From a virus, in UHGV virus genome UHGV-1662908: 18,670 bases of DNA; one strand, written 5' to 3'. Below the pieces are notes generated by a model. That model had not been told where the DNA came from. It saw nothing but the letters and a program-made list of their open reading frames with translations, and did no database searches. Shown piece by piece: positions 1,782-18,670 of this stretch. A program made the position numbers and the translations under genes. Positions within the stretch are counted from its first letter, which is position 1. Each line of letters begins with the position of its first letter.

Positions 1782-4327
1782 TCCTGCACTACACGCGAAA
1801 CGCAGATGGCGCTTTCGACCGCACAAAACACGTCGGGATGCCGATGGAGTTTGTCGTTAACCGTATCCCCGACGGCGTGCCGGTGCGCGTCTACCTCGGC
1901 GAGATTGGTGACGATACCGACGTAACTGACGACTTCGACGCGCTTAAAGACGAAGACGCGGTGTACCACATTATTGAGGGTGCTGGTGGTGGTATAGGTA
2001 ACGCTATTGGGAAGGTGTTTGGTTTTATCCTTAAGCCAATCGCTAAGTTGTTTGGTCTTAACCGGACACCTAATGCCGACTACACGGCGACTAACAATCA
2101 GACAACGTCACCGAACAACAGCCTTACCGACCGTTCCAACAAGCCGCGCCCTTACGAGCGCTCTTATGACATATGCGGGACTGTACAGACAATTCCTAAT
2201 GACCTGATGCAGACGTACAAGGCGTTCAACTCCACGGGCGCTTTGCTGGAGTATTCGTACTACGACGCAGGGCGCGGGCATCTGCATATTGAGGCCAATG
2301 GCGTCACAGAGGGTGACACCTTGATAAGCGACATCACGGGTTCCTCTGTTGCCGTGTATGCGCCGTATACTTCCCCTAACAACACCACATCCCCTCAACT
2401 ACAAATCGGCGACGTCATTGACCAGAAACTCTATGTGACATACTCCAATGATGACGTCGACGGCATTGTACTGAAAGCGCCAAACGACATCGGAGCTAAC
2501 CCAACCTCCGGCGGCACTGCCAAACGTATCTCAACCACCGGCTACATCTATGACCCGTCGGGCGACTCTGCTTTTTCTGAGTTTCTTAGTGTCGGTGATG
2601 TCGCGGTGCTGAGCAACTTTGACGTACGCGATGTCACTAACCTGAACGGCTCATTTGAGGTTTTATATGTCGACGACTTTGAGGTTCGGTTGTACGTCGG
2701 GAATATAGGTAACTGGGGCAATCTTAGTAATGGGCAGACTTACGCCCTGACAGAGCGTTCGGATACGTTTATAGGCCCGAGCAACACGTACGATGTGTCC
2801 CTGACCGACTGGTATTACATGGTGCGCGGAGAAGTTGACCGAGTGCTCGCCAACGTTGCTGGTCAGAACGGCCTCTACAAATACGATGGCGGCTATAACC
2901 GCACCAGCGTAACCGTAGAACTCCAGTACCAGATGATTGATTCCCGGCGCAACCCGTTGGGTGATATTTACACGGTACAGGCTACAATTACGGGCAACAA
3001 TACCGACTACGTCGGCACGTCTATCTACGGTCAACTGCCGACCGCGTCCCGTTTCCGCGCCCGCATGCGCCGTATAACGAATTTCGATAAGGACTATGAC
3101 GGTACAGTAAGCGACGAGATAACGTTCATCAACCTGTACGGGCAGTCCCTGGACACAACCCCACACTACGGCAACAGAACTACCGTACATTGCGCCCGTA
3201 AACAGACGCCACGTGCCGCAAGTATCGACAACCCGGAACTGCGCATGATCGCAACCGAGATGTGTTACAAATACCGGGGAAATGGGGTATTTGATACAGT
3301 AATGACGCCGAATACGCAGGCGGTACAATCGCTAATCAGACTGGCGCGTGACCCGGCGGTGGGCAATCTGGAACTCACAACGGCAAACATGGATAAGTTA
3401 CTATCCGTGCAGGAAGAAATTGAGTCCTATTTCGGAAGTGAATTGGCGGGGCAGTTCTGCTACACATTCGACGACTACGACACAACTATGCAGGACATCG
3501 TTCAGACTATAGCTGAAGCCGTGTTCTGTACCGCGTACCGTAAAGGCGCGGATATTATGCTGCGATTCGACCGCCCAGTCGCTGGGCCAGAGATGGTGTT
3601 CACCCACCGCAGCAAAACTACCGGGACGGAGAAATGGTCCCGCACGTTCAACGATTCGACAACCTACGATAGTCTGTCGTTCTCGTACATCGACCCGGAT
3701 ACTAACGTACAGGAAACGATTTATATCCCGGAAGAACTTGGGGTAAACACCGAAGAATACGAATCGAAGGGGGTGCGCAACTACCAGCAAGCGTACTGGC
3801 TTGCGTGGCGTCGCTACCAACGCAACGCGTTAAGTAAAGTTGTCGTAGAGTTCGAAGCTACCGAAGAGGGGGCACTCGCTACACCGGGCGGCGTAATCAG
3901 TGTGGTTAAAGGCTCGCGTATCGCGCCACAGGACGGCTATGTTGTTGCCGTTAATGGGCTTACGCTGACGCTGTCTCAACCTGTTACGTTTACTCCGGGG
4001 GATGACCACTCCATCATCCTCAAGAAGCGCGACGGCTCGGTGCAGAGTATCTCTGTTATCAAAGGAAGTCACGACCGTGAGGTGGTTATGCTCTCCGCGC
4101 CGGAGGAGGCAATCTACACAGGGAATAGTGCACTAAAAACTGAGTTTTCATTCGGCAACGAAGCAAGGCATAATGCTCAGAAGATAGTTGTTTCCTCAAT
4201 CGACCCGGGCGACGACCGCACGGTCAGGATTACTGGTTACAACTATGACGATGGATTCTATAAATACGACGGCGTCGCGCCATACGGCAGCGGTTTCTCC
4301 GACGGGTACAGCAACGGTTTTAATTAA
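1772..4327 (+). CDS. large tail-tip / host-specificity-like structural protein (851 aa in track; start uncertain)
   Basis: Long ORF 1772..4327 directly after the small tail proteins and before the tail fiber. Track start is a TTG overlapping the upstream stop; first ATGs are at about 1838 and 1844 (MPMEF). A Gly-rich hydrophobic stretch lies near the N-terminus (GGGIGNAIGKVFGFILKPIAKLFG). Confidence 0.6.
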   Translation: MAIILHYTRNADGAFDRTKHVGMPMEFVVNRIPDGVPVRVYLGEIGDDTDVTDDFDALKDEDAVYHIIEGAGGGIGNAIGKVFGFILKPIAKLFGLNRTPNADYTATNNQTTSPNNSLTDRSNKPRPYERSYDICGTVQTIPNDLMQTYKAFNSTGALLEYSYYDAGRGHLHIEANGVTEGDTLISDITGSSVAVYAPYTSPNNTTSPQLQIGDVIDQKLYVTYSNDDVDGIVLKAPNDIGANPTSGGTAKRISTTGYIYDPSGDSAFSEFLSVGDVAVLSNFDVRDVTNLNGSFEVLYVDDFEVRLYVGNIGNWGNLSNGQTYALTERSDTFIGPSNTYDVSLTDWYYMVRGEVDRVLANVAGQNGLYKYDGGYNRTSVTVELQYQMIDSRRNPLGDIYTVQATITGNNTDYVGTSIYGQLPTASRFRARMRRITNFDKDYDGTVSDEITFINLYGQSLDTTPHYGNRTTVHCARKQTPRAASIDNPELRMIATEMCYKYRGNGVFDTVMTPNTQAVQSLIRLARDPAVGNLELTTANMDKLLSVQEEIESYFGSELAGQFCYTFDDYDTTMQDIVQTIAEAVFCTAYRKGADIMLRFDRPVAGPEMVFTHRSKTTGTEKWSRTFNDSTTYDSLSFSYIDPDTNVQETIYIPEELGVNTEEYESKGVRNYQQAYWLAWRRYQRNALSKVVVEFEATEEGALATPGGVISVVKGSRIAPQDGYVVAVNGLTLTLSQPVTFTPGDDHSIILKKRDGSVQSISVIKGSHDREVVMLSAPEEAIYTGNSALKTEFSFGNEARHNAQKIVVSSIDPGDDRTVRITGYNYDDGFYKYDGVAPYGSGFSDGYSNGFN

Positions 4328-4339
4328 AGAGGACTCTAT

Positions 4340-7213: not shown

Positions 7214-7240
7214 AAAAAAGGGCCGAAAGGCCCTTTTCTC
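7213..7240. terminator. bidirectional rho-independent terminator between convergent tail and replication modules
   Basis: A-run, GC stem GGGCC, GAAA loop, GGCCC, then TTTTCTC; flanked by A-run on one side and T-run on the other, so it can terminate both strands. Lies at the 3' end of the tail fiber gene and of the minus-strand operon. Confidence 0.7.
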
Positions 7241-7377
7241 TACTCTTCTGATAACTTCTCCAGTACAAACGCCAGTTGCGCATTAGCGGCGTCTCTTTGC
7301 TGCCGTAGGCGTAGAACCTCCTCTTCAAGTTCCTTGATACGTTTTTGCAATGCCGGAATCGGAGCTATGATGTTCAT
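7240..7377 (-). CDS. small hypothetical protein (~45 aa, predicted coiled coil)
   Basis: Not in the ORF track (under 60 aa). My translation gives MNIIAPIPALQKRIKELEEEVLRLRQQRDAANAQLAFVLEKLSEE; its ATG overlaps the stop of the upstream 61-aa ORF (ATGA) and it ends at the terminator. Confidence 0.3.
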   Translation of the reverse strand: MNIIAPIPALQKRIKELEEEVLRLRQQRDAANAQLAFVLEKLSEE

Positions 7378-7559
7378 TTCTCACCTTCGCTTTTCTTGAA
7401 GCTGCGCTTTATGTCCGGCAGCGTGTAACATCGTGACTTTTCGTATTTACCGTTCGAGCTTACCAAAACAAAGCTGTTGCCGTCTTTTGATATGTACTCG
7501 ATGGTGAAAGTATTGAATGTGCGTATGCTGTATATTTCATCACCAACATTAAGTTTCAT
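7374..7559 (-). CDS. hypothetical protein (61 aa)
   Basis: ORF track 7374..7559; start overlaps the helicase stop; last in the minus-strand operon. Confidence 0.45.
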   Translation of the reverse strand: MKLNVGDEIYSIRTFNTFTIEYISKDGNSFVLVSSNGKYEKSRCYTLPDIKRSFKKSEGEK

Positions 7560-8980
7560 TTCTTACCTCGTCTCTTCATGTAATTAAGCAACTCTTCCTG
7601 TACCGATTTTTTCTCGTCCGTACGCGCGGCAACAACCTCGTCCAGCGTGTCTTTAGCGACGATGTGGTAGAGGAACACCGGGCGCTCGTGTCCTGCCTGT
7701 TTCTGACGGACTGGACCTATACGCTCAACGACCTGCAAATAGTGCTCAAGGTTCCATCCCTGACTTATGAACGCCAGATGATGCCCGCCGTCCTGTAAAT
7801 TTAAACCATGACCGGCTGACGCAGGGTGGACGCATAGTATTTCGATTTCACCACGGTTCCACGCTTCCATCTGCTTATTACCCTTAGCGCCTTTTGCAAA
7901 CGCCTGTGCCTGCGGGAAACGTTTCAGGATGCGTTCCAGTTCGTGCTTGAACTGATAAGCCACAAGCAGCGGCGCGCCCTGTAACTCCTCGACAATTGAC
8001 TCAAGCGCGTCAAGTTTCGTATCGTGCACTTTCTCCCAGTCTTTGGTTGCTTCGCCGTCTGGCCCTGACACATATACGGCACCGGAGGCAATCTGCAAAC
8101 ACTTCGACGTCTTCGCCGCAGCGTTAGCGGCTTCAACCTCCCCGCTCTCCAGTTCCGCGAATAACTTCTCCTCCATATCGATGTACGCCTGACGTGCTTT
8201 CTTCGGCAGGTCGATTTCCACTGGCACGATAACAGGCGCTTCACACCCGAACCACTCGGCAGCGTCAATCGTGAGACTGATGTCCTTCATCTTCTGGTGA
8301 ATTTCGTTATCCGCCCCCGGGCGCGCATGATACTCTCGCGCCATAGCGGACTTACCCTTCTGGACCGAATTAAACCAGCGGTCGGTGAACGCGGTGTATG
8401 AAGAACCCAGTCGCTCGCCAGCGTCAATAAACCAGTTCTGCCCCCACAAGTCCTTCAGGCCGTTTGGTGATGGCGTACCTGTCAGGTTGATAAAACGCTT
8501 AACCTTACCGAATGCCACTTTGCTAAGCGCCTTTGCCCGCTTGCTTCCGCCGGAACGGCTGCGGAATGATTTAAGTTTCGTGCTTTCATCGGCAACGATA
8601 ACCGTAAAAGGCCAGTCGTCTTTGCCGTAGTAGTCAATCAGCCATTCGATAACTTCATAGTTCGTGCACACCACGTTAGCGTATGACTCCAGCGCCGCGA
8701 TGCGGCGCTTCTCCGAACCCGTGGCATCGACGACACTCAGGCATGGGAATCGCCATTTCTCTTGTTCTGCTGGCCATGTGCCGGACGCAACGCGCAGCGG
8801 AGCTAGTATTAACACGCGGTCGTCATCGTTAAGTTGGCCGTTGCGGAACAGTCGGTTTAATGCCCACAGTACGCTGCCAGTCTTCCCGGCACCCATGCTT
8901 GCCCATATGTTGCAGCGATTGTGCCGCAACATAAACGAAGTCATGAGCTTTTGGTACTCGCGCCTTTGAAACTTAGACAT
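7556..8980 (-). CDS. SNF2/DEAD-like superfamily 2 helicase (~474 aa)
   Basis: Track ORF 7556..9298, but its first ~106 codons overlap the upstream gene and look non-protein-like; likely start is the internal ATG (MSKFQRREYQ) at 8980. Motifs: Walker A GAGKTGS, DExx box VIVADEST, SNF2-type motif III LTGTPSPN. Confidence 0.8.
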   Translation of the reverse strand: MSKFQRREYQKLMTSFMLRHNRCNIWASMGAGKTGSVLWALNRLFRNGQLNDDDRVLILAPLRVASGTWPAEQEKWRFPCLSVVDATGSEKRRIAALESYANVVCTNYEVIEWLIDYYGKDDWPFTVIVADESTKLKSFRSRSGGSKRAKALSKVAFGKVKRFINLTGTPSPNGLKDLWGQNWFIDAGERLGSSYTAFTDRWFNSVQKGKSAMAREYHARPGADNEIHQKMKDISLTIDAAEWFGCEAPVIVPVEIDLPKKARQAYIDMEEKLFAELESGEVEAANAAAKTSKCLQIASGAVYVSGPDGEATKDWEKVHDTKLDALESIVEELQGAPLLVAYQFKHELERILKRFPQAQAFAKGAKGNKQMEAWNRGEIEILCVHPASAGHGLNLQDGGHHLAFISQGWNLEHYLQVVERIGPVRQKQAGHERPVFLYHIVAKDTLDEVVAARTDEKKSVQEELLNYMKRRGKK

Positions 8981-9656
8981 GATTAGCCTCGTAAACTGCT
9001 TTTGCGAGCCCACGCGGAGTAAGGCTGCGGATTGTTTTTGTTCTGGCGCTCTTTCCGCCGAGTTTAGCCCAACCAGGGTTATCTCCGCTGCCCACGGCAA
9101 CCTCGGCAACGTTAGGCATAACAAACCCATTTCCGGCCCACAGGCACGTCTTTTTAACATATGCATCTCGCGCCGGGATAACATCCGGGAACATTGGATG
9201 CGTGTCGTCTTCGGGTAAATAGCCGCCGTATTCGTACGGATTGAACGCGTAGTCAGGCTTACGCCATAAAGACGAAAGAACGCTAACCGGGTTCTCAATC
9301 ATATACGGTACGTTGTACTTTTTAGCCAGACGCGCAGCCACTTTGCATGTAATCACGGCCTCTACCTGAAACGTTGGGTTCCTTCTCCGCTTCGTTTCGA
9401 AATGGGCCGCGCCGCTAACGGCTAAATCTGTGCATGGGGGGAACGCGAAAATAATATCCGGCGCAACGTCGAAGTCGAATTTATTATCAATCCACGCGTT
9501 TATATAGTGGATATTTTCATGTTCAACTTTTGCACCCAATCGAGCGTAGTCTCCGTGGTCGGCGCCGTCGTAGTTGAAACAATAGCAAGTATGGCCCGCT
9601 TCCGCCCACGGTTGGGCCATAATGCCCGAACCGTCAAACAATGACCAGACAATCAT
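8973..9656 (-). CDS. SAM-dependent DNA (cytosine-5)-methyltransferase-like protein (227 aa, short)
   Basis: ORF track 8973..9656. Motif I-like SLFDGSG (FxGxG), motif IV-like FPPC with candidate catalytic Cys, motif VI-like IENP. Shorter than typical C5-MTases, so the target-recognition region may be minimal or the function different. Confidence 0.5.
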   Translation of the reverse strand: MIVWSLFDGSGIMAQPWAEAGHTCYCFNYDGADHGDYARLGAKVEHENIHYINAWIDNKFDFDVAPDIIFAFPPCTDLAVSGAAHFETKRRRNPTFQVEAVITCKVAARLAKKYNVPYMIENPVSVLSSLWRKPDYAFNPYEYGGYLPEDDTHPMFPDVIPARDAYVKKTCLWAGNGFVMPNVAEVAVGSGDNPGWAKLGGKSARTKTIRSLTPRGLAKAVYEANHV

Positions 9657-9844
9657 TTCAGCACCAGCACAAGCTCTTTACGCCCGAACGCCGTAACGTT
9701 ACCCGTTACATCTTCGATAACCAGTTTACCGTTCGACTCGACGAACACAGTATCGACGGCAACAGGCCGACGGGTCTTAACGTTGAAAATCATGTCGCCC
9801 GGTACGATGTCACGTGCTGGTTTGCGGTCATATTCGTGTTTCAT
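9653..9844 (-). CDS. hypothetical protein (63 aa)
   Basis: ORF track 9653..9844; first gene downstream of promoter A, with AAGGA RBS about 9 nt upstream of the ATG; stop overlaps the start of the methyltransferase-like gene. Confidence 0.45.
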   Translation of the reverse strand: MKHEYDRKPARDIVPGDMIFNVKTRRPVAVDTVFVESNGKLVIEDVTGNVTAFGRKELVLVLK

Positions 9845-9874
9845 TTCTCAATTCCTTATATTGTTGGTGTGTGA

Positions 9875-10159
9875 TTAACTATAATAGTTCGCTATTAGGT
9901 CGTCAACCTGTTTGAACGAGCCAACGACAAAAACATTTGCACCACGTTTACACATCCGCGCATGCTCGCGTAACTGGTGTGGGTCTGGCTTCGTGTTTTC
10001 GTCTTTCTTAACCTCGACGAACCAGATGATGCCGCCGGGGAGAATTACCAGCAGGTCGGGAGCGCCGGAGCGCCCCTCGTAGGAAAGTTTACGAACGAGG
10101 CCACCGAGGGCCTCGAATCGTTCTTTTGCGTATTTCTGAATCTTGCCCTCCGGGGTCAT
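9875..10159 (-). CDS. VRR-NUC domain nuclease (PD-(D/E)xK fold)
   Basis: ORF track 9875..10174 starts at a TTG; the in-frame ATG (MTPEGKIQ...) at 10159 overlaps the upstream small ORF stop (ATGA). Motif GAPDLLVILPGGIIWFVEVKK matches the VRR-NUC D..(E)VK signature. Confidence 0.65.
   Translation of the reverse strand: MTPEGKIQKYAKERFEALGGLVRKLSYEGRSGAPDLLVILPGGIIWFVEVKKDENTKPDPHQLREHARMCKRGANVFVVGSFKQVDDLIANYYS
9876..9906 (-). promoter_or_regulatory. sigma70-like promoter A (minus strand): TTGACG - 17 bp - TATAGT
   Basis: Minus-strand reading gttgacgacctaatagcgaactattatagtt; member of a 3-copy family (see 14349 and 17013). About 30-60 nt upstream of the 63-aa gene start. Coordinates approximate. 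Confidence 0.5.
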
Positions 10160-10308
10160 GAGCGCAGAACCCAAGTTATAAACGCCCCGCCTAGAACGGC
10201 AACACCGACAAACTTAAAGAACAGGCCATAACAGAACATCGCAGCTATTCCCGCACCGAGTAACAGTGCGAGCATGGTTACTATCGTCCAAAATACAAAC
10301 ATTGTCAT
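10156..10308 (-). CDS. small hydrophobic membrane peptide (~50 aa)
   Basis: Not in track. My translation MTMFVFWTIVTMLALLLGAGIAAMFCYGLFFKFVGVAVLGGAFITWVLRS; ATGA overlaps at both ends place it exactly in frame between neighbours. Confidence 0.4.
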   Translation of the reverse strand: MTMFVFWTIVTMLALLLGAGIAAMFCYGLFFKFVGVAVLGGAFITWVLRS

Positions 10309-10394
10309 AATACGCACCCCTCTCGTTTTGTATGCTCAATCCCGCAGCGCGGGCAGATTCGACAGTCTTCTTCGTATAACCCGTAAATTTTCAT
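10305..10394 (-). CDS. tiny Cys-rich peptide (~29 aa, CxxCxxC...C)
   Basis: Not in track. My translation MKIYGLYEEDCRICPRCGIEHTKREGCVL; ATGA overlaps with both flanking small ORFs. Confidence 0.3.
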   Translation of the reverse strand: MKIYGLYEEDCRICPRCGIEHTKREGCVL

Positions 10395-10522
10395 TCCAGC
10401 ACCCACAGATAAATTGCGATGAACATACCCAATACGGTGACAATCATGCCGTATTGACCCTCGTGACAGTAGACACCGGCGGCGAATCCCGCCAGTAATA
10501 CGATAATCAGTTTACTTAGCAT
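10391..10522 (-). CDS. small hydrophobic membrane peptide (~43 aa)
   Basis: Not in track. My translation MLSKLIIVLLAGFAAGVYCHEGQYGMIVTVLGMFIAIYLWVLE; its ATG overlaps the last codons of the DNA polymerase gene and its stop overlaps the next ATG. Confidence 0.4.
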   Translation of the reverse strand: MLSKLIIVLLAGFAAGVYCHEGQYGMIVTVLGMFIAIYLWVLE

Positions 10523-13500
10523 AACGTTTCATCTCCGCACCTTCCGCTACAAGCGGGAACCCCTCAGCCCACTCAGGCAGCGAACACATTAATTTTTCCA
10601 GTTCAGCCACCGTGTAATCAGGCGTATCTGGAGTTTCACACACCAGTTCATCGTGTACCGAAAGCACGATGGGATACCCGCCACCCTCAACATTAATCAT
10701 CGCATATGCTAGTAAATCACGGCACAACGCCTGAACAATGTTTTCACAGGCTTTGCCGCCGTGGGTGTACAGGGTAGTCCATTGGCGGGTTAACTGGTTT
10801 TCACCTTGGTACTTGATTCGCACATTCGTGTTTACCCGTCCGTCTTCGTCTGTTTCTTTTGTCACGCTAACGCCGATCCCCGGATACGAGAGGATACGGC
10901 CTGACGGCAACTCCATACACAACCACCAACCGGGAACCTTCCTACCTGATGAATCGGTTTCTACTGTTCTCCAGATTCGGATAGCGCGCTCGCCATTCTT
11001 GCGCAAGTGTGCTCCCGCCCAAAATTCACGACCAGGATTGCGCACAGCGGCTAAAATTCCGTCTTTAAGGTCCCGCCAGAACGCTACTGTTTCCGGGTGT
11101 GACTCGCGCCACATACGCTTGATCGCGTCACATGTGCGCCACACTTTCTTGTCCAGAATATACGATGGTCTGTCGTCCTTTTCACCTGGATGCGGTGGCC
11201 GCTTTGCTTCCTGGATGCGTGCCCACTCGTACCCGCGTGCGGTAGCGGCCCATATGTGGCCCGGGAATGTACCGTCCATTGTTTTTGCCATCTCAATAAG
11301 GTCAAGACCTAAGTTTTTAGCGAACGTAACGAACGCTCCGACGCCTCCCTCGTAGCCGAGGCCAAGCTCGCAGTTATGCGCCACAAGAAAGCCAGAGTCT
11401 GAGGCTATAAGAAAACGGTTGCCGTCTTCCACATCAATCAGGTCGTACACCGGCTCGCAGTAGGTTAATTTCCCGCTCAAGTTCAGCAATGCGGGCAACG
11501 GCTGCATCATACTTTCGTTGAAGCTCGGGTATTTGCCGTCTGTTTCGGCAGTTTTCAGAACGGCTGACAAACCGAATGTTTCCAGGTTCGTAGTTACCGT
11601 CTGTGTCGATTCTATCCATTTCGAGGTTCGGGTCATCCCAGCTTTCCAGAGTTTGAACATATCTAAGAAAAGACCTTTTATCAGTCCTCCACTGGTCGAA
11701 TACCGTGATGCCTCTTGCCCCATAGTTTTTATAACCCTTATCCCTGGGGCTTGTTGTTCGCGTGATAGCCGCGGACAGCCGGTTGAGTAATCGCGTTCTG
11801 TGCGCATCATCCGGCATTGCGTCTTCGTAGCAGAAATACTGTTTACGATATTTTTTTGTTGCTTCAAGGGCGCAGCGGTTGCATTGAGTGGTTTTACCCG
11901 CTCTGACGTTGTCATAATAGACCCGCCCCGGCATCCCCCCGCAATCACATTGGACGAGTAGTTGTCTTTGGCCTTGTCGTTTTGGTAACTCGCGCAGGAT
12001 AACCAAGCGTCCATACCTCTCTCCAGGGCGAGGCCCATCATATATCTGTTTGAAGCGAGTTGCTTTGCCTGCTTCCAGGAATGCGCCAAGATTTTGTGGT
12101 CTTCGGTCATTAGCACCCCGTCCACATTTATTACCGGTTTCCACCCCATAAGGTGCGCGCCTTTTGTATTCACCCATTTTTCACCGCTCCATACTTTATC
12201 TGTTGATGTAACCGCCATAATATCCTTAAATCCGCCATCGGTCAAAACTTGGGTATGACGGTGAAGGCACGCTTTACCAATCTGGCGCAAGTCTTTACGT
12301 TCTTTCTTAATGTCGTCTGGGTCCATGCCAAACATCTTACCTGCGGTTACGCAATAAATATCCAGCCCGGCGCGGAACGTATCTAGCGCGGTTTCTTCGC
12401 CTGCAAGCCACGCAAGCCCTCGGCCCTCAACGTTAGAATAATCGGCAACAACAAACTTATGTCCTGCTTCCGGTATGATGCAGCTACGCACCGTCGATGC
12501 CGTTAATTTAGCGACATCAAAACGGCGGTGCGCGCGGCCCTTAAGTAACGCTGAAATGCCTTTATCCAGTTCATCATCGTGATAGTACCCGCGCGCGAGG
12601 TTCTGCGGTTGGAAGCCTTTACCCGCCCATCGCAGAGTGCGTTTTGCCCCGCCGTACTGCAAGCAACCGCGGCGTCGGTCGTCAGAAGAGCGGCCCAACA
12701 GCAGTGGGTTATATTTCGTTGATGCGGTGGACGCGGCCCCGAGGCGCATTTCTATAATCATGCGAGCATCGTCGGGTAAATCATCGTCTGCCAGCAGGTC
12801 ATTCAGTGTCGACTTCTGTGCGTTATGGATGCGGTGCGCGGGTGCGAGTTCACGCAGAATCGGAAGGAAGTCTTTACCAGTAAGCGAGCCGCCGTATTTT
12901 CGTTGGGCTTCTTCCTGTAACTGTGCCTTGTGCTTCTCCACGGCTTCAATCGCGGCTTCCGCCAGTGCGACGTCAACCTTAAACCCGCGGTCATTGATTA
13001 ACTGGTCCAGCTCCAGTACACGGTCCTCGAACTCGGAGTTACCCCAACGCGGCAGTTTATGGAAGACTTCACGCATCGCGGTGATGTCGCTCACGGCGTA
13101 CTTGATGAACAGCGCCCACTCGTCAGGGTGTGTTTCTGCGGTGTATCGACGGATTTTGTAGTTCTTCGGCGTCGGTTTAGAGAAACGCTGAATCAGCGCC
13201 TTGCCGCGTTTGTCTTTTGCATTGTCCGCCGATACGCCCAGCACTTCGCACAGCGCATCAAGTGACCCAGGCAGCGCGTGACGAAACGCTCGAATCATAG
13301 TGTCGATGGTATTTCTCGGTTTGATATCCACACCCCAGCAGTGCTTCATAACTAGCCTGTCGAACATTAAAAAGTTATGGCCTACAATTCTCATACGCCC
13401 GCGCATAACATTACGTAGCGCAACGCGTAGGCTTATTGGCATTACTGGTTCGGAAGTGCAATCCCATACTTCTACAGGCCCATCATCAACGGCGTATGTA

Positions 13501-13607
13501 CATATTATAATCTCAGTTGTTGCGTGTTCCGCGTATGCGTATGACCCTACTTTCTTTAGGTCAGCTTCAGAGAATGTTTCGGTATCAAGATACAATAAAT
13601 TAGCCAT
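10512..13607 (-). CDS. family A DNA polymerase with N-terminal 3'-5' exonuclease domain, interrupted by an intein (precursor 1031 aa)
   Basis: ORF track 10512..13607. Exo motifs YLDTETFS, GHNFLMFD, YAVSDI; polymerase motif A VVADYSNVEGRG; motif B split as RQIGKA / CELGLGYEGG; motif C VLSVHDELV. Confidence 0.9.
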   Translation of the reverse strand: MANLLYLDTETFSEADLKKVGSYAYAEHATTEIIICTYAVDDGPVEVWDCTSEPVMPISLRVALRNVMRGRMRIVGHNFLMFDRLVMKHCWGVDIKPRNTIDTMIRAFRHALPGSLDALCEVLGVSADNAKDKRGKALIQRFSKPTPKNYKIRRYTAETHPDEWALFIKYAVSDITAMREVFHKLPRWGNSEFEDRVLELDQLINDRGFKVDVALAEAAIEAVEKHKAQLQEEAQRKYGGSLTGKDFLPILRELAPAHRIHNAQKSTLNDLLADDDLPDDARMIIEMRLGAASTASTKYNPLLLGRSSDDRRRGCLQYGGAKRTLRWAGKGFQPQNLARGYYHDDELDKGISALLKGRAHRRFDVAKLTASTVRSCIIPEAGHKFVVADYSNVEGRGLAWLAGEETALDTFRAGLDIYCVTAGKMFGMDPDDIKKERKDLRQIGKACLHRHTQVLTDGGFKDIMAVTSTDKVWSGEKWVNTKGAHLMGWKPVINVDGVLMTEDHKILAHSWKQAKQLASNRYMMGLALERGMDAWLSCASYQNDKAKDNYSSNVIAGGCRGGSIMTTSERVKPLNATAAPLKQQKNIVNSISATKTQCRMMRTERDYSTGCPRLSREQQAPGIRVIKTMGQEASRYSTSGGLIKGLFLDMFKLWKAGMTRTSKWIESTQTVTTNLETFGLSAVLKTAETDGKYPSFNESMMQPLPALLNLSGKLTYCEPVYDLIDVEDGNRFLIASDSGFLVAHNCELGLGYEGGVGAFVTFAKNLGLDLIEMAKTMDGTFPGHIWAATARGYEWARIQEAKRPPHPGEKDDRPSYILDKKVWRTCDAIKRMWRESHPETVAFWRDLKDGILAAVRNPGREFWAGAHLRKNGERAIRIWRTVETDSSGRKVPGWWLCMELPSGRILSYPGIGVSVTKETDEDGRVNTNVRIKYQGENQLTRQWTTLYTHGGKACENIVQALCRDLLAYAMINVEGGGYPIVLSVHDELVCETPDTPDYTVAELEKLMCSLPEWAEGFPLVAEGAEMKRYAK
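11373..12269 (-). mobile_element. intein (299 codons) inserted in motif B of the DNA polymerase
   Basis: Boundaries computed from track coordinates: Cys447 (CLHRHTQVLTDGGF, block A) to Asn745 (VYDLIDVEDGNRFLIASDSGFLVAHN, blocks F/G), followed by +1 Cys; block B TEDHKILA at aa ~501-508. Confidence 0.75.
11434..12177 (-). CDS. HNH homing-endonuclease-like ORF lying inside the intein but in a different reading frame from the polymerase/intein frame
   Basis: ORF track 11434..12177 (247 aa); frame differs from the polymerase ORF ((13607-12177) mod 3 = 2). Contains GRLVIL...CDCGG...QCNRC and GYKNYGARGITVFDQW...MDRIDTDGNYEPGNIRFVSRSENCRNR, typical of phage HNH endonucleases. Recognisable part starts ~aa 50; the first ~50 codons overlap intein blocks A/B. 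Confidence 0.6.
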   Translation of the reverse strand: MGEYKRRAPYGVETGNKCGRGANDRRPQNLGAFLEAGKATRFKQIYDGPRPGERYGRLVILRELPKRQGQRQLLVQCDCGGMPGRVYYDNVRAGKTTQCNRCALEATKKYRKQYFCYEDAMPDDAHRTRLLNRLSAAITRTTSPRDKGYKNYGARGITVFDQWRTDKRSFLRYVQTLESWDDPNLEMDRIDTDGNYEPGNIRFVSRSENCRNRRQIPELQRKYDAAVARIAELEREINLLRAGVRPD

Positions 13608-13623
13608 ATTATTTTCGACCCTT

Positions 13624-13650
13624 AGTAAAAAGGCCCAATGAAGGGCCTTA
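13624..13650 (-). terminator. intergenic stem-loop / partial terminator between ssDNA-binding-like gene and DNA polymerase gene
   Basis: Inverted repeat AAGGCCC ... GGGCCTT with a 6-nt loop, followed on the minus strand by a run of T; sits in the 61-nt gap between the two genes. Coordinates approximate. Confidence 0.5.
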
Positions 13651-13668
13651 GTTAAATTGATTCAGATA

Positions 13669-14295
13669 TTAACGGCGACGACGTTCACGGCGCGGTGCTC
13701 CATCTTCTTCGTCGTCTTCCAGGTCATTAACGCTTGCAGCAACTTTAGAACCGCCGAACGCTTTACCTTCGCCGACGTATTTAATTGCCAGCAGGTTAAC
13801 GCCGAGGACTTTATATTTCTGGCTAAACCAGATTTCAACGCTTACGTTGGCGACACAGCCGCTGTAAACCTGTTCACCTTCAATCTGTTCGCCGTCTACA
13901 TTGAAGTCCTGCTCTACCTGAGTCTCACCTTTTTTAGAGGTTACAATCAGCGGCTGTTTCTGTGCCTTCGCTTTGAAGTAGAATCCTTCCGGGAAGTCTT
14001 CATACGGATTGTCGCGCTCGGCAATGTCTTTAATCGCGCATTTATCCATGTGCTTGCCTTCGCCGTAGTTCGACTTCATCCATTTCTCGGCGGCGGCTGC
14101 ACCTAACGCTTCTTCAACTACAGCGTAAACAGTGTCGTAGAGCGCATCGATTTGAGCATGGTCAGATGGCAGGATAATAGTCGCGCTGTACTGGCCTTTA
14201 GTGATTGAGCCATCATCGTTTTCACGGTCTTTTTCGCGTTCGAATACGTTAACCCATGCAGTGTTTACTTTACGTAGATTTAATTTCAGTCCCAT
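13669..14295 (-). CDS. DUF2815-like phage ssDNA-binding protein with acidic C-terminal tail
   Basis: ORF track 13669..14295. N-terminal pattern (KVNTAWVNVFE...KGQYSATIILPSDHAQID) resembles the DUF2815 family that accompanies DUF2800 nucleases and PolA in phages; acidic tail DLEDDEEDG; first gene after promoter B. Confidence 0.55.
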   Translation of the reverse strand: MGLKLNLRKVNTAWVNVFEREKDRENDDGSITKGQYSATIILPSDHAQIDALYDTVYAVVEEALGAAAAEKWMKSNYGEGKHMDKCAIKDIAERDNPYEDFPEGFYFKAKAQKQPLIVTSKKGETQVEQDFNVDGEQIEGEQVYSGCVANVSVEIWFSQKYKVLGVNLLAIKYVGEGKAFGGSKVAASVNDLEDDEEDGAPRRERRRR

Positions 14296-14348
14296 CTTGA
14301 TTTCTCGCTTTTAAGTTTACTCCGGGAAACTGCCCGGCCAGTGATTAG

Positions 14349-14380
14349 AACTATAATAGCTAACTATTCAGGTGTCAACA
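14349..14380 (-). promoter_or_regulatory. sigma70-like promoter B (minus strand): TTGACA - 17 bp - TATAGT
   Basis: Minus-strand reading gttgacacctgaatagttagctattatagttc; 29 of 31 positions identical to promoter C. About 55-85 nt upstream of the ssDNA-binding-like gene start. Coordinates approximate. Confidence 0.55.
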
Positions 14381-14382
14381 CT

Positions 14383-15684
14383 TTATTCTAAATCTTCTTC
14401 ACTAACCTGATTCCACTCAGGCCGTTTGTCGTCTGCCGTTGCGACGCATGGCGCGCCTGGCTTACGAGTAACTTTCGTTTCCAGTTCGGCCCACATCCTG
14501 GCATACGCGCCTTTTAACACTTTTTCCGCTTCCGTTGGTGACATAACAGATTTCTTTGTTAGCAAATCCATGTCTACGTTATGGCGCGCTGCTAGTTCTT
14601 CGACCCATTTTTCATCACTCCAGCTACGATTACCCGGACGACCTTCAACCAGCTTATACCCCGGCACTTTCTTACCGGAATGCAAAGCGGCGGCCATAGC
14701 TTTCTCAACCTTGTCGATGTGCTGGCGCAACAACGGCAACTTCTCGTACTCAGCTACGAGTTGCTCTGGTGTCAGTTCCAGTGCAAAGTCGTCCTCCAGT
14801 TCTTCTGCCAGTACTGCGTTAACCGTCTTTGTACGCACGGCGCATTGTTCAGAGAACCGACACCACTGGCAGCCATCGACCGACGGCCTGAAGTCCGACG
14901 CTTTCAGGTTCTTCTTGCCGCGGAAATATGCATCAAGCGCCAACAGTGCACGTTTCCGTGCGAACTTAGCGAACAGTTCCAGACCTTCAACCGAGATGTC
15001 CCACTCCGACGCCCCACCAGCGTACGGTTGGAAGATTACCAGACGAACAGTTGTTATGTTATAACGTCTCTTGAGACGGCGATAAACACCGAGAGCGTAA
15101 AGCATAAGCTGTTTGTTTTCTTTCGCTTCGACACGATGTCGTCCTGTTTTCAGGTCGCCAATAATGAGCATGTGCTCGTCGGTGTTTGCCATCTCCTGTA
15201 CGGCAACAAGGTCAGAAGTTCCGAATGTCTGTAGTTCTTCTTGCCGTCCGTTAGGGCTATGAATGTAGCCAGGATGCAATACCTCAGTAAGATTGACGCA
15301 CATTTCCAGCTTGGCGTAAGTAGCCACGTCGATAATAGCTTTGCAGTAATCGGTGTACTTACGCACCTGCTCAATCATGTCAGCCGTAATCAGTACCGCG
15401 CCTTTCATCGGGCTGATTAGCGCCTTAATCTGGCCTTTGCCTTCATCCAGCACGTAAGCGCCAACTTCACGCCCTAACGGCAATGCAGTGCCACGGATAT
15501 AGGCGTTTAGATGGACCTCCGCTATGGTGTGCATGGCTGTGCCTAATACCGCAGCTTTACCGGACGTGTTAGGAATATCTTTCTCACAGGCCAGTGATGC
15601 AGCACAGCTTAGCCACTTTTTAGCGCCTGACGGTGACAGTAAGGCGTGCACATCGTTATTGCCGCCACGTTCTTTAAGAATCAT
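14383..15684 (-). CDS. PD-(D/E)xK nuclease of the DUF2800 / Cas4-RecB-like type (433 aa)
   Basis: ORF track 14383..15684. N-terminal HALLSPSGAKKWLSCAAS; IIGDLKTG...QLMLYALG matches a D..K...Q..Y nuclease motif; one N-terminal Cys plus a C-terminal CQWCRFSEQC cluster is consistent with a Cas4-like Fe-S site. Confidence 0.6.
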   Translation of the reverse strand: MILKERGGNNDVHALLSPSGAKKWLSCAASLACEKDIPNTSGKAAVLGTAMHTIAEVHLNAYIRGTALPLGREVGAYVLDEGKGQIKALISPMKGAVLITADMIEQVRKYTDYCKAIIDVATYAKLEMCVNLTEVLHPGYIHSPNGRQEELQTFGTSDLVAVQEMANTDEHMLIIGDLKTGRHRVEAKENKQLMLYALGVYRRLKRRYNITTVRLVIFQPYAGGASEWDISVEGLELFAKFARKRALLALDAYFRGKKNLKASDFRPSVDGCQWCRFSEQCAVRTKTVNAVLAEELEDDFALELTPEQLVAEYEKLPLLRQHIDKVEKAMAAALHSGKKVPGYKLVEGRPGNRSWSDEKWVEELAARHNVDMDLLTKKSVMSPTEAEKVLKGAYARMWAELETKVTRKPGAPCVATADDKRPEWNQVSEEDLE

Positions 15685-16178
15685 TTCTCAGCTCCGTTAA
15701 CTGTAAACCCATATTTAATCTCGGCTTGCCTACGAGCCTTAGCCGCGTTCTCTAACTTATCGTAAGCCCCTAAATAAATCGGCCTGCCGTCTACATAAAT
15801 TCTAGCGACCCACTTACCGTAGCGTTTATGAAACCCAACACCTTTAACCCCTGAAGTATTGTCGGTCCGTATGTTTGTGCCGTGTGCGATACTTCCCCGA
15901 CGCATTTTTATAAGATTTTCTATTCTGTTATCAGTTCTATCTTTATTTTTATGACGAATTACTTCCCCGGGCGCTATCACCCCGTTAAACATCTCCCAAA
16001 CTACGTGGTGGATAAGTTTAGTAGTCCCGTTAAAACGTAGTATTTTAAATTCACTCCCGTCGTTGTCCTCCCTCGTACTGCCAGCTTCTTGCCCTATTTT
16101 TACAGATTTTGACGGACTTATTTTCCAAAATAATTTACCGGTATCAGGGTCGTAGTCAAAAACTTCATGCCAGTTCAT
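15681..16178 (-). CDS. free-standing HNH homing endonuclease with C-terminal AP2-like DNA-binding domain
   Basis: ORF track 15681..16193; likely start is the ATG (MNWHEV) at 16178, overlapping the upstream stop (ATGA). HNH motif HHVVWEMFNG...IRHKNKDRTDNRIENL; AP2-like SGVKGVGFHKRYGKWVARIYVDGRPIYLGAYDKLENAAKARRQAEIKYG. Confidence 0.7.
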   Translation of the reverse strand: MNWHEVFDYDPDTGKLFWKISPSKSVKIGQEAGSTREDNDGSEFKILRFNGTTKLIHHVVWEMFNGVIAPGEVIRHKNKDRTDNRIENLIKMRRGSIAHGTNIRTDNTSGVKGVGFHKRYGKWVARIYVDGRPIYLGAYDKLENAAKARRQAEIKYGFTVNGAEK

Positions 16179-16447
16179 ACCCTGCTCTCCCACTGGTCAA
16201 TTAAATGTCGTGTCTTATGTTCGCAGTGCATAGCCCAGCTATACATCGACTCGAAGACATAAAAGTCAGGCTTGACGAACGTCGTGCGCTTAATCTGAGA
16301 CACGTGACGGCCTATATCTTTAGGCCATGGTACTTTGCCTAAGTACGCCATCTCTTCCATCTGGTGAGCACCGGACGGCGCACGTAACAGCCATAGCGCC
16401 TCTGTGGTATCCCGCCTGTCTACGGCGCGGTAGAGTTGGTAAATCAT
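16175..16447 (-). CDS. hypothetical protein (90 aa)
   Basis: ORF track 16175..16447; GAGGG RBS ~8 nt upstream of the ATG; stop overlaps the HNH-AP2 start. Confidence 0.5.
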   Translation of the reverse strand: MIYQLYRAVDRRDTTEALWLLRAPSGAHQMEEMAYLGKVPWPKDIGRHVSQIKRTTFVKPDFYVFESMYSWAMHCEHKTRHLIDQWESRV

Positions 16448-16465
16448 ATTTCCGACCCTCAGTTA

Positions 16466-16485
16466 AAGCGGCCCGAAGGCCGCGA
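16466..16485 (-). terminator. stable GC stem-loop (UUCG tetraloop on the minus-strand RNA) between two operon genes; weak terminator or RNA stability/processing element
   Basis: GCGGCC CGAA GGCCGC on the + strand, i.e. GCGGCC UUCG GGCCGC in the minus-strand transcript; no strong U-tract follows, so probably not an efficient terminator. Coordinates approximate. Confidence 0.4.
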
Positions 16486-16490
16486 GATAG

Positions 16491-16982
16491 TTATTCTTCT
16501 TCGAAATACTTGTTCTTGATTGCCGTCAGACGTTCCAGGTACTCGGCAAGGTCTTCGTCTTTAATCGCGGCAATCTTCATCTTCTTACCGGTGAACTCTT
16601 CCAGCAGTTCATCAGAGTCATCGCACGCGGCGTCGCTAGGGCCTTCGTTAATCGCATCATCGATAGCCTGAATCTGGTCGCGCAGAGACTGGTAATCGAC
16701 TTCTTCTTCCGGCTCTGGCGTCGGCTCCTCTGCTTTAGCTTTACGCGGCTTGCGTTTTGGCTTCTCTTCTTCTGCTGGTTTAGTGTCAACGATGTCTTCG
16801 CCTTCCACCGGGATTTCTTTTGTTTCTTCTTTAATACTTTCAGAGAACTGCTCAATTTTATGTGCGGCTACTGCGGCAGCCTCTTTGGCAGTAGTTGGCG
16901 CGAACTGTTTCGCACTATTCGCAGCAATCAGTTCATGTGCAACCACGAAACGTTCCAGTAATACTAAGAATTTCTCTAACAT
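16491..16982 (-). CDS. acidic hypothetical protein (163 aa), first gene downstream of promoter C
   Basis: ORF track 16491..16982; strong GAGGAG RBS; highly acidic, Lys/Glu/Pro-rich central region and D/E-rich C-terminal half. Confidence 0.55.
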   Translation of the reverse strand: MLEKFLVLLERFVVAHELIAANSAKQFAPTTAKEAAAVAAHKIEQFSESIKEETKEIPVEGEDIVDTKPAEEEKPKRKPRKAKAEEPTPEPEEEVDYQSLRDQIQAIDDAINEGPSDAACDDSDELLEEFTGKKMKIAAIKDEDLAEYLERLTAIKNKYFEEE

Positions 16983-17012
16983 TTGTTTCTCTCCTCTCGT
17001 TTGGTATGTGCT

Positions 17013-17043
17013 AACTATAATAGCGAACTATTCACGTGTCAAC
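17013..17043 (-). promoter_or_regulatory. sigma70-like promoter C (minus strand): TTGACA - 17 bp - TATAGT, within the divergent region shared with the HTH regulator gene
   Basis: Minus-strand reading gttgacacgtgaatagttcgctattatagtta; about 30-60 nt upstream of the acidic protein gene. A partial extra copy of the spacer motif (actattcacatatcaac) lies ~35 bp to the right. Coordinates approximate. Confidence 0.55.
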
Positions 17044-17106
17044 GGGCTTTTCTAAAATAATTAATATGGTACTATTCACATATCAACTAACTAAGGAGTA
17101 ATTGAC

Positions 17107-17322
17107 ATGCAACCATCTGAACTAGGCATCCGTGTAGAACAACGCCGTAAAGAACTTGGCATCTCCCAGCGCCGTCTGGCTGTCATGGCTGGCGTTTCCC
17201 AGGGCGCAATTAACCAGCTTGCGCTTGGGGTAACTCAGGACGTACGCCCGGCGACGCTGTTTAAACTGGCAGAAGTGCTGCAAGTAGACGCCAAGTGGCT
17301 GGCGTTCGGTGAAGGGGTTTAA
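17107..17322 (+). CDS. XRE-family helix-turn-helix transcriptional regulator (Cro/CI-like, 71 aa)
   Basis: ORF track 17107..17322; AAGGAG RBS ~9 nt upstream; HTH signature QRRKELGISQRRLAVMAGVSQGAINQLALG; the only + strand gene within the minus-strand replication module. Confidence 0.75.
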   Translation: MQPSELGIRVEQRRKELGISQRRLAVMAGVSQGAINQLALGVTQDVRPATLFKLAEVLQVDAKWLAFGEGV

Positions 17323-17338
17323 CGCCCCTTTCTTTTTA
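17311..17338 (+). terminator. rho-independent terminator after the HTH gene
   Basis: Hairpin AAGGGG ... CCCCTT overlapping the stop codon, followed by TCTTTTT; lies between the convergent HTH gene and the minus-strand 104-aa gene. Coordinates approximate. Confidence 0.55.
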
Positions 17339-17650
17339 TTGCAACTTATCGAGTTCTTCCAAATTCTTAACCGTGTGTTGCACGTTCAGGTACTGAATCC
17401 AGGCCAGAAACCACACACTTACAGGAAAACTTATTACAATAGTTATCGCGATAATCAACTTGAAAAGGCACTTTATAATCTCCGCCAGCGTCATATCTAA
17501 AATGTCTTTAAACTCCGCAAAAATCCCCGCCGTGTAAACACAAAAAGTCCACCAGTGGCCGCTTACCGCGGAAACACATGTCAGGTATGACGGGCGGTAT
17601 CCTGCCTTCACTGCTTTAAATGGGTTATCTATAAAATCGTAGATATTCAT
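17336..17650 (-). CDS. hypothetical membrane protein (104 aa)
   Basis: ORF track 17336..17650; hydrophobic C-terminal segment (LFKLIIAITIVISFPVSVWFLAWI); start overlaps the stop of the upstream ATPase gene. Confidence 0.5.
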   Translation of the reverse strand: MNIYDFIDNPFKAVKAGYRPSYLTCVSAVSGHWWTFCVYTAGIFAEFKDILDMTLAEIIKCLFKLIIAITIVISFPVSVWFLAWIQYLNVQHTVKNLEELDKLQ

Positions 17651-18670
17651 TCCAAATCCTCCTCTGTCACTGTTAACATTTCATTCGGTTCGTATATTGT
17701 CTTCGGAATCTTGTTATCCGTTATCCGGGTGTTCAGCCGGTAACGACCCGGGATTATCTGATTGTTTTCGTCAGTCCCGGGTACGAGATACCCGGCCTCA
17801 ACCATTTTCTTAATCTTCCCGCGTTCTATGGCTTCTTTGGAGTTGAACGCCTTTGCGTTAGGGTCAGACTGTGCTAGCTTATTCGCTGCGGCTACCGTGA
17901 TACCTTCGTTGCCTTTGTAAGTTCCTTCCGCCAGTTCAAACGCTGCGAGTATCGTAGCCTCTGAACTGTTGACAGCGTTCTCTACAGTTTTGCGTACGTT
18001 TTCTTTACCTTCCTTTGTCAGCCCTTCTTCCCGCTCTTTCTCCTCGTCGGTCTTGAACGGCTCGAAGCCCCACGGCATCAGCACAAGCGCCTTGTGTGGC
18101 TCCGGCAGGTCGAGGTTTACGATTGTGCCGTATTCCTCGGTGCCGCCAGGGAACTCAACCGCGCGGTACTCTTTCGGCGGCGGCGCTTCACGGAACTGTA
18201 CAGACTCCAGCACCATACCAACCGTCTTCTGTTGCGGTCCGTGTTTGAATTTAGAGTGGTATACGTTTATCTGGCGGTCTGTTGCACGCTCAATTGTCAG
18301 TTCTACGTCTACACCTGCATACAGCGCCCCGCTGCCACGGGCCTTCTTTCCACCTTTCGGCGTATGGTGGACGACGCCTACCGCGGCTTTAGTCGCATCA
18401 CGTACTTCTTTCAGGATGGCAATAACTTTACCCATGCCGATTGCCGTTGATGAACTGTTCTCATCGAACTTATCAATCGTCAGAGCCAGGGTCTGGTTAA
18501 GGGTGTCGAACGCGACCATCCCAATTGGCTCGTCGCCAGCGGTTTCACGCATCAACTTAATCAGGTTTTTTGAGGACTCAGAGGACGAGTTACCGGAACC
18601 GGTAAAGGCTGATTTCGTCGTTGAGGGGTACATGCCGTCGGATTGTATCTGGGATATTGTCGGGGAATCC
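17647..18670 (-). CDS. RecA-like ATPase resembling the helicase domain of phage/plasmid primase-helicases (AAA_25/RepA-like); 5'-truncated by the window edge
   Basis: Track ORF 17647..18633, but the frame stays open to the window end, so the true start is outside. GVVHHTPKGG resembles the His-rich motif of DnaB/RepA-like ATPases; the Walker A region is presumably upstream. Confidence 0.5.
   Translation of the reverse strand, partial: DSPTISQIQSDGMYPSTTKSAFTGSGNSSSESSKNLIKLMRETAGDEPIGMVAFDTLNQTLALTIDKFDENSSSTAIGMGKVIAILKEVRDATKAAVGVVHHTPKGGKKARGSGALYAGVDVELTIERATDRQINVYHSKFKHGPQQKTVGMVLESVQFREAPPPKEYRAVEFPGGTEEYGTIVNLDLPEPHKALVLMPWGFEPFKTDEEKEREEGLTKEGKENVRKTVENAVNSSEATILAAFELAEGTYKGNEGITVAAANKLAQSDPNAKAFNSKEAIERGKIKKMVEAGYLVPGTDENNQIIPGRYRLNTRITDNKIPKTIYEPNEMLTVTEEDLE

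Follow-up and report, generated by a model that had tools for sequence, protein, structure and literature searches.

Our comparative analysis of sequence and structure suggests that a small XRE/Cro-type helix-turn-helix (HTH) protein of 71 amino acids (aa), encoded on the plus strand of virus genome UHGV-1662908, is probably a repressor of the phage 434 Cro type at work in a lytic phage, in other words a Cro without a CI, and that it would bind a 14-base-pair (bp) dyad, AATAG-N4-CTATT, and so damp early and middle promoters as well as its own. The window, by which we mean the whole stretch of 18,670 nucleotides (nt) that was analysed, derives from a K1G-like Kagunavirus of the Guernseyvirinae, a virulent siphovirus of E. 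coli; megablast of positions 16400-18670 matched 437 phage records, led by Kagunavirus K1G, K1H, Ivi, fPoEco01 and others at 87-93% identity and followed by many Salmonella Jerseyviruses. A preliminary description of the window had left the locus between a Cro/CI-like switch and an autoregulated controller of early genes. The controller half of that proposal is supported by the homology to 434 Cro and the dyads in the promoters, whereas the bistable switch is not supported, the divergent partner being an acidic protein and no CI.

A dyad in the promoters of the replication module

The conserved spacer motif of the window is the 14-bp dyad AATAG-N4-CTATT, with perfect copies starting at 9883, 14355 and 17019 and a one-mismatch copy within a promoter at 17063. 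When up to one mismatch is allowed, five copies are found where 0.56 would be expected, a number reached in 0 of 200 shuffles, and 4 of the 5 lie in the promoters described below; the remaining one, a one-mismatch dyad at 3418, falls inside a long plus-strand open reading frame (ORF, 1772-4327) and was treated as chance. When all inverted pairs of 5-mers spaced by 0-10 bp were counted without bias, the AATAG dyad ranked top in the window, in K1G (6 perfect copies), in Jersey (4) and in the related loci L054 and L055 (5 each). In K1G it also came first among all gapped 5-mer pairs, palindromic or not, ahead of the stems of terminators. All six perfect K1G dyads lie in promoter regions, one of them within the 3' end of a gene and the other five between genes. 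Three correspond to promoters A, B and C, one falls in the divergent region that separates the superinfection-immunity and tail-chaperone genes, and two belong to early promoters that face rightward and lie past the helicase-primase operon.

The three promoters in question are all on the minus strand of the window. Promoter C (17014-17042), which the preliminary description had placed correctly in the divergent region upstream of the regulator, joins TTGACA (17042-17037) to TATAGT (17019-17014) through a 17-bp spacer, agrees with the sigma-70 consensus at 11 of 12 positions, and stands ahead of the acidic-protein and exonuclease genes with a predicted leftward start at about 17007. Promoter B (14350-14378; TTGACA-17-TATAGT, 11/12), which precedes the genes for the single-stranded DNA (ssDNA)-binding protein and the DNA polymerase, holds the dyad AATAGCTAACTATT at 14355-14368, and promoter A (9878-9906; TTGACG-17-TATAGT, 10/12) holds AATAGTTCGCTATT at 9883-9896; B and C are the only 11/12 promoters in the scanned region 7000-18670. 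In these class I promoters (TTGACA-N4-AATAG-N4-CTAT-TATAGT) the spacer is filled by the dyad, which shares one base with the -10. In class II promoters (CTTGCA-N10/11-AATAG-N4-CTATT) the -10, either TACTAT or TATAAT, lies within the dyad, and in Jersey the register is intermediate, with the dyad 7 nt after the -35. The dyad is therefore found at three registers relative to the -35 and in both orientations; moreover, between promoters A and C the arms are identical and the central tetramers are reverse complements of each other. Such variation in register and orientation favours a protein site over a core promoter element.

The upstream region of the regulator is the only place that holds two copies of the dyad. 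A search for dyad-symmetric operators in this divergent region, as the preliminary description had proposed, yielded both, together with the same dyad in promoters A and B. The perfect copy, O1 (17019-17032, AATAGCGAACTATT), is situated within the promoter C spacer and has one base in common with the -10. The imperfect copy, O2 (17063-17076, AATATGGTACTATT), has AATAT as its left arm, a single mismatch, and overlaps the core promoter of the regulator itself; it belongs to a repeat (17062-17087) that matches 17018-17043 at 81%, and which had already been noticed as a partial second copy of the spacer motif. The two sites lie 44 bp apart from centre to centre in the window, 43 bp apart in L054 and L055, and 55 bp apart in Jersey. 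For the regulator promoter on the plus strand the most likely -10, judged from sequence, is the extended element TGgTACTAT (17067-17075), which is paired with a weak -35, CTTTTC (17047-17052), at a distance of only 4 bp from that of promoter C, so that the two promoters stand back to back. Alternative -10s are TAAAAT (17053-17058), which the promoter scan picked as TTCACG-16-TAAAAT, and TAATAT (17062-17067); whichever of the three candidates is used, O2 covers either the -10 or the start site. Jerseyviruses have TTGCAC or TTGCGT-17-TACTAT at this position.

We aligned the orthologous promoter regions of approximately 25-32 distinct Kagunavirus sequences to obtain a footprint of the dyad. None of the ten arm positions of O1 varies in 32 unique sequences, while three of its four central positions do, and variation in the region is greatest in the 3-4 bases that separate the dyad from the -35 of promoter C, where a 1-bp indel gives 17- and 18-bp spacers; the hexamers of promoter C are essentially invariant among the relatives, with one variant in the -10. 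In promoters A and B arm variants occur in 1-2 sequences only, as against 2-8 per central column. O2 is part of a 23-bp AT-rich block (GAATAGTACCATATTAATTATTT on the minus strand) that is invariant in 29 unique Kagunavirus sequences, next to coding sequence with a synonymous dS of 0.26, and its defective arm AATAT is retained in a lineage with a 77% identical protein, even though the centre there reads GCTA in place of GGTA. Arms that do not vary, a centre that does, indifference to register and orientation, and a weak copy in the protein's own promoter are, at the level of sequence, the classical signature of an operator for a dimeric HTH protein.

Near-dyad variants of the form A(A/C)TAGTTGACT(A/T)(T/G)T, in which the -35 hexamer TTGACT lies inside the near-dyad, were also observed in related loci (L002 at 40925 and 4404, L003 at 42338, L004 at 40828), where they precede a rightward block of small genes and terminase and the spanin and head genes. 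The protein that reads the dyad may thus also touch promoters of the late region.

The regulator and its locus

The regulator ORF (17107-17322, plus strand, stop included) translates as MQPSELGIRVEQRRKELGISQRRLAVMAGVSQGAINQLALGVTQDVRPATLFKLAEVLQVDAKWLAFGEGV and is preceded by a Shine-Dalgarno sequence, AAGGAG (17093-17098), that lies 8 nt before the ATG and is conserved in the upstream regions of Kagunavirus and Jerseyvirus. The protein matches Pfam HTH_3 at 49.1 bits over residues 11-65 (cut-off 23; 5.7e-13), with HTH_19 and HTH_31 also above threshold, and its PHROG matches are to families of transcriptional repressors or regulators. Its best relative of solved structure is phage 434 Cro, likewise a protein of 71 aa (E 3.6e-7, residues 6-68 aligned), followed by the N-domain of 434 repressor, HipB, HigA and P22 c2. 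An AlphaFold2 model (pLDDT 78.9) has five helices at residues 5-17, 21-28, 32-39, 48-57 and 62-66, and Foldseek matched this model to SinR-N, 434 Cro, CapH-N and P22 c2 at TM scores of 0.74-0.81 (0.74/0.80 for 2cro at 40% identity and 0.74/0.79 for P22 c2), to 434 cI-N (0.77/0.79 for 1pra) and to C.AhdI and C.BclI. With HTH_3 above its curated threshold and a five-helix fold that superposes on 434 Cro and repressor, the protein belongs to the XRE/Cro-C1 family. Among its closest phage matches outside the Guernseyvirinae are Cro/CI-type genes of temperate phages, for instance the cro of Klebsiella phage RCIP0098, which is about 44% identical and lies between CI and cII.

The gene is real and under strong purifying selection: 30 Kagunavirus sequences carry 29 nucleotide alleles that encode 12 proteins, with mean dN 0.011, dS 0.26 and dN/dS 0.042. 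Residues 17-47, which comprise helices 2 and 3, are unchanged even in a lineage (P0012-P0016) whose overall identity is just 76-79%, and synteny is also kept there. By tblastn the regulator was found in 568 phage records (356 Salmonella, 115 Escherichia and 11 "Kagunavirus"), counts at or above those of the helicase-primase (325, 99 and 11, respectively), which indicates that the gene is universal in the group. Within Kagunavirus it is 91-99% identical, compared with 71-99% for the adjacent helicase-primase segment. A search through the helicase-primase for a more distant lineage led to fTaEco03, which proved to be another Kagunavirus, still carrying this regulator but with its helicase allele exchanged, and which adds no independent lineage.

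As the preliminary description had it, the gene stands alone on the plus strand within a minus-strand block. Plus-strand tail genes occupy 45-7213 and every long ORF from 7240 to the window end is on the minus strand; the regulator is the sole plus-strand gene in 7240-18670 that is not nested within a longer minus-strand ORF. The block holds an HNH homing-endonuclease-like ORF, a DUF2800/PD-(D/E)XK exonuclease, an Enc34-type ssDNA-binding protein, a family A DNA polymerase and the C-terminal part of a helicase-primase whose gene is cut by the window end. The same layout is present in the annotated relatives Ivi, Jersey and fTaEco03, where the gene is called "transcriptional regulator", "helix-turn-helix domain-containing protein" or "transcriptional repressor DicA"; in the RefSeq record of K1G (NC_027993) it is unannotated and leaves a gap at 33303-33657, though the ORF is intact and 96% identical to the protein of the window.

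The divergent region had been put at about 124 bp and measures exactly that (16983-17106). Across it lies the acidic-protein gene (16491-16982, minus strand), the first of the promoter C operon, whose product of 163 aa is visibly rich in Glu and Asp when the translation is read by eye and belongs to phrog_3127, a family with no assigned function; a Pfam scan of it found no domain, HTH and peptidase domains included. In other Kagunaviruses promoter C is followed by different first genes. On its other side the regulator converges with a predicted membrane protein gene (17336-17650, minus strand; 104 aa, phrog_2638) situated between it and the helicase-primase gene. This membrane protein is variable, with 65 aa in K1G and Ivi and no counterpart in L055, and is called a '13.88 kDa late protein' in some records.

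The terminator attributed to the gene was found as a plus-strand hairpin with a T-run at 17311-17339, GAAGGGGTTTAACGCCCCTTT followed by CTTTTTATT, with an 8-bp stem and the stop codon in the loop. Its energy is indistinguishable from that of shuffles in a 50-nt context (z -0.75), and the call therefore rests on shape and on conservation across genera: hairpin and U-tract are conserved in all Kagunavirus loci, and Jerseyviruses have the same shape built on another stem (AGGGGCC/GGCCCCT), again with the stop codon in the loop. The minus strand of the hairpin has no U-tract, which makes the terminator specific to the plus strand. In Cornellvirus no such hairpin directly follows the regulator stop, and the helicase-primase gene lies downstream on the same strand. 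A scan for a minus-strand terminator between 17650 and 17107 found none, so that transcripts of the leftward helicase-primase operon probably run antisense through the regulator gene; by sequence at least, such read-through is a possible source of additional transcriptional interference, colliding with the regulator promoter.

Several further features of the window and its relatives were noted. The cassettes of promoter and dyad form the junctions of mosaic modules (14373-14420 and 16975-17010; loci L006-L033) and are themselves nearly identical throughout; across Kagunaviruses the -35 of promoter B adjoins at least five mutually unrelated sequences, and at least four different first genes follow the Shine-Dalgarno sequence of promoter C. 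Such a cassette may serve as a recombination site for module exchange. An ORF with HNH_3 and AP2 domains (15681-16193, minus strand), homing-endonuclease-like and situated between the exonuclease gene and a 90-aa gene, has no counterpart at this position in K1G and has the appearance of a mobile insertion. The DNA polymerase gene (10512-13607, minus strand) encodes 1031 aa as against 726 aa in K1G, owing to an in-frame insert of about 298 aa at approximately 11376-12269; this insert follows ...RQIGKA, begins with CLHRHTQVLTDGG, holds MTEDH (TxxH) and ends with VYDLIDVEDGNRFLIASDSGFLVAHN before CELGLGY, motifs that correspond to the canonical intein blocks A, B, F and G, although Pfam gave no Hint or endonuclease domain there. 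Outside the window, K1G has three tandem 24-bp repeats (CCGTA-N6-ACCGC; 37510-37580) in an unannotated early region beyond the helicase-primase operon, which are iteron-like and could mark an origin. An apparent break in helicase-primase homology at 18570 is probably a divergent linker together with the window edge, and no insertion. Rfam and tRNA scans of the window gave no matches.

A model for early gene timing and its rivals

In the model that we favour, host RNA polymerase would fire the near-consensus promoters at once upon infection, while the regulator accumulates from its weaker promoter. Its dimer would then bind AATAG-N4-CTATT, whose 5-4-5 geometry is similar to that of the likewise 14-bp operator of 434, and would occupy the perfect dyads first, which lie between the -35 and -10 in promoters A, B and C and over the -10 in the rightward early promoters of the relatives, such that polymerase is excluded and transcription of the replication and early genes is shut down or damped as infection proceeds. 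At higher levels the regulator would also fill O2 and limit its own synthesis, and its terminator would keep the gene monocistronic. A bolder extension, which we find possible but rather doubtful, would make this one Cro-like protein the master timer of the transcription programme of all Guernseyvirinae, with an operator in essentially every early and middle sigma-70 promoter; similarly tentative is its corollary, that the programme includes a weakened, self-limiting copy of the operator and that the cassettes double as homologous junctions for module exchange. If it were true, expression of the regulator in a host would give broad immunity to the whole group.

Several comparisons between genera weigh against the assignment of the dyad to the XRE protein. 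The recognition helices are SQGAINQ in Kagunavirus, SQSLITH in Jerseyvirus and TQSAISH in Cornellvirus. In the Cornellvirus VSiA, the AATAG dyad gives way at orthologous promoters to another 5-4-5 dyad, whose half-sites are A(T>A)TA(G/C/T) (ATTAG-AACA-GTAAT, ATTAT-GGAA-CTAAT and ATTAG-TGTC-GTAAT, for instance), and TATTA-N6-TAATA is present as three perfect and three one-mismatch sites against 1.2 expected. Kagunavirus and Jerseyvirus thus have identical arms despite a different helix 3, whereas the helix of Cornellvirus is closer to that of Jerseyvirus and yet its half-sites are shifted, so that similarity of operator does not track similarity of helix; furthermore, the right arm of the dyad overlaps the -10, and its conservation may in part be owed to RNA polymerase. 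Covariation of recognition helix and operator across the three genera is ambiguous at the level of these alignments and lends the assignment no support. The same comparisons lend themselves to an explanation that we judge unlikely, though it is the principal rival, in which the dyad is the operator of another protein, most plausibly HTH_17, and the XRE protein autoregulates through some other site or acts elsewhere. HTH_17 is an excisionase/AlpA-like protein of 56-60 aa encoded upstream of the helicase-primase gene, outside the window; K1G, Jersey, Ivi, L054 and L055 all carry it. Between the Kagunavirus type and Jerseyvirus, which share the exact dyad while their XRE recognition helices differ, its identity is 68-86%, and it is undetectable in the complete VSiA, where AATAG-N4-CTATT has been lost, so that it fits the distribution of the dyad at least equally well. 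However, Cornellvirus retains the XRE gene and keeps 5-4-5 dyads at the orthologous promoters without any HTH_17, the sole paired copy of the dyad brackets the promoter of the XRE gene, and a perfectly symmetric 14-bp site is better suited to a Cro-type homodimer, as winged helices of the Xis/AlpA type usually bind as monomers to direct repeats. These three points lead us to favour a Cro-type dimer as the reader of the dyad.

Two further explanations were weighed. The dyad could be a promoter cassette spread by duplication or recombination and kept for promoter strength, with the HTH protein unrelated to it or of local importance only, and to this we give little credence. In favour of this reading, the motif is never without near-consensus hexamers, its right arm runs into the -10 and mosaic modules meet at its cassettes; but in spacers of a kind that normally carry no sequence constraint under sigma-70, the arms never vary, in contrast to the central 4 bp and the 4-5 bp beside the -35, which do so freely. 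Three registers, two orientations and a centre inverted between promoters A and C with the same arms also speak against copying, and the inverted centre is what reading by a symmetric dimer would predict. In one paper the motif figures as no more than a promoter consensus, detected with PHIRE and named a "phage RNA-polymerase promoter" (tgAATAGTa-ccTATTat-T), in seven copies (PMC9825357). This consensus is attributed to a phage RNA polymerase, though no gene for such an enzyme is annotated in the complete relatives K1G and Jersey. It is still less probable that the regulator acts on the host, on prophages or on defence systems, as a mimic of DicA-like or CapH-like repressors or as an orphan antitoxin. 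Some GenBank records and one paper do name it DicA, and its fold matches include the antitoxins HipB and HigA as well as CapH; against this, the gene is monocistronic with its own terminator and no toxin partner, a matching dyad lies in its own promoter and in all main phage promoters, and its DNA-reading region is frozen across lineages, as expected if many phage operators must stay matched. More specific identities were rejected: a type II antitoxin of the HipB/HigA kind, as there is no plus-strand neighbour, no co-operonic toxin and a dedicated terminator; a restriction-modification controller protein, as the gene forms a transcription unit by itself amid replication genes of the opposite strand; and a MerR-type regulator that binds within spacers, as the spacers here are 17 bp, occasionally 18, rather than 19-20, and the protein is of the XRE family.

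Least probable of all, in our estimate, is that the regulator forms one half of a lambdoid-like lysogeny or pseudolysogeny switch. This idea draws on its sequence kinship with lambdoid Cro proteins that adjoin a CI and on the divergent promoters with two operators, O1 and O2, 44 bp apart, which each overlap one of the two back-to-back promoters and do not make up a triplet, but the divergently encoded acidic protein, having neither HTH nor peptidase domain, offers no CI-type partner. No integrase or CI-type repressor gene is annotated in the complete relatives K1G and Jersey, nor an integrase in fTaEco03, and none of 5,426 complete E. coli genomes was matched when 16900-17700 was searched against them by megablast. 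The phages are described as lytic in papers on the group, which report no genes for lysogeny. A CI partner, an integrase and prophage copies were thus all looked for and none was found, and the regulator is very probably not part of a bistable Cro/CI immunity switch. The sequence evidence here sides with the earlier suggestion of timing control in place of lysogeny, and the question raised alongside it, whether homologous phages carry an integrase or repressor elsewhere, is answered in the negative for the annotations of the complete relatives.

Relation to known systems

Kagunaviruses and Jerseyviruses are widely proposed for therapy or biocontrol against E. coli K1 and uropathogenic E. coli (UPEC) and against Salmonella, and in genome reports the label "repressor", "Cro" or "DicA" is often attached to this gene with no further remark. 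Already known are the GenBank records that call the regulator a repressor or Cro and the one paper that lists the motif as a "phage promoter"; a full-text literature search returned mentions of the regulator gene or its promoters at the level of annotation, and nothing in the way of functional or transcriptomic work. It appears that the motif has not previously been described as a dyad, connected with the regulator or footprinted across relatives. A lytic-cycle regulator that has a defined operator in the main promoters but lacks a lysogeny partner, if shown, would remove this ambiguity over safety, would give a testable model of gene timing in a small virulent siphovirus that uses host RNA polymerase only, and would supply a compact set of promoter, operator and repressor for engineering. 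The regulator as such is fairly ordinary, and it opens no new class of mechanism.

The closest known system is 434 Cro (PDB 2cro, 3cro and 1zug), which shares with the regulator a length of 71 aa, an end-to-end alignment with approximately 40% identity in the structural alignment, the five-helix fold, a conserved Gln at the start of helix 3 and transcription divergent from a neighbouring promoter. The operators of 434, similar to the candidate dyad, have 14 bp, short arms and a variable centre that looks uncontacted. Here, however, there is no CI partner, no lysogeny and no OR1-3 triplet shared with PRM, the site is AATAG-N4-CTATT and not the ACAA-N6-TTGT of 434, and the copies are dispersed over about eight promoters of the genome instead of being gathered in two operator clusters. 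The cro of RCIP0098, among the matches of highest identity outside the Guernseyvirinae in the phage collection, differs in the same manner, since it lies in a canonical CI-cro-cII region of a temperate phage, whereas the regulator stands alone in the replication module of a virulent one. The controllers C.AhdI and C.BclI are small XRE proteins of the same fold (TM 0.72-0.77). Such C proteins are dimers that bind paired operators before their own gene and act as delay timers, and the perfect O1 with the imperfect O2 is an analogous pair; in contrast to the regulator, which is monocistronic, they are co-transcribed with an endonuclease gene and also activate, while the location of the sites here, in spacers or over -10 elements, suggests repression only. 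Mu Ner and phi29 p4 are likewise small, early phage DNA-binding proteins that turn down early promoters during infection, and the likeness to them is one of concept only, p4 being of a different fold and family and Ner belonging to a temperate context. The regulator probably works as Cro does in lytic growth, or as a timer in the manner of the C proteins of restriction-modification systems.

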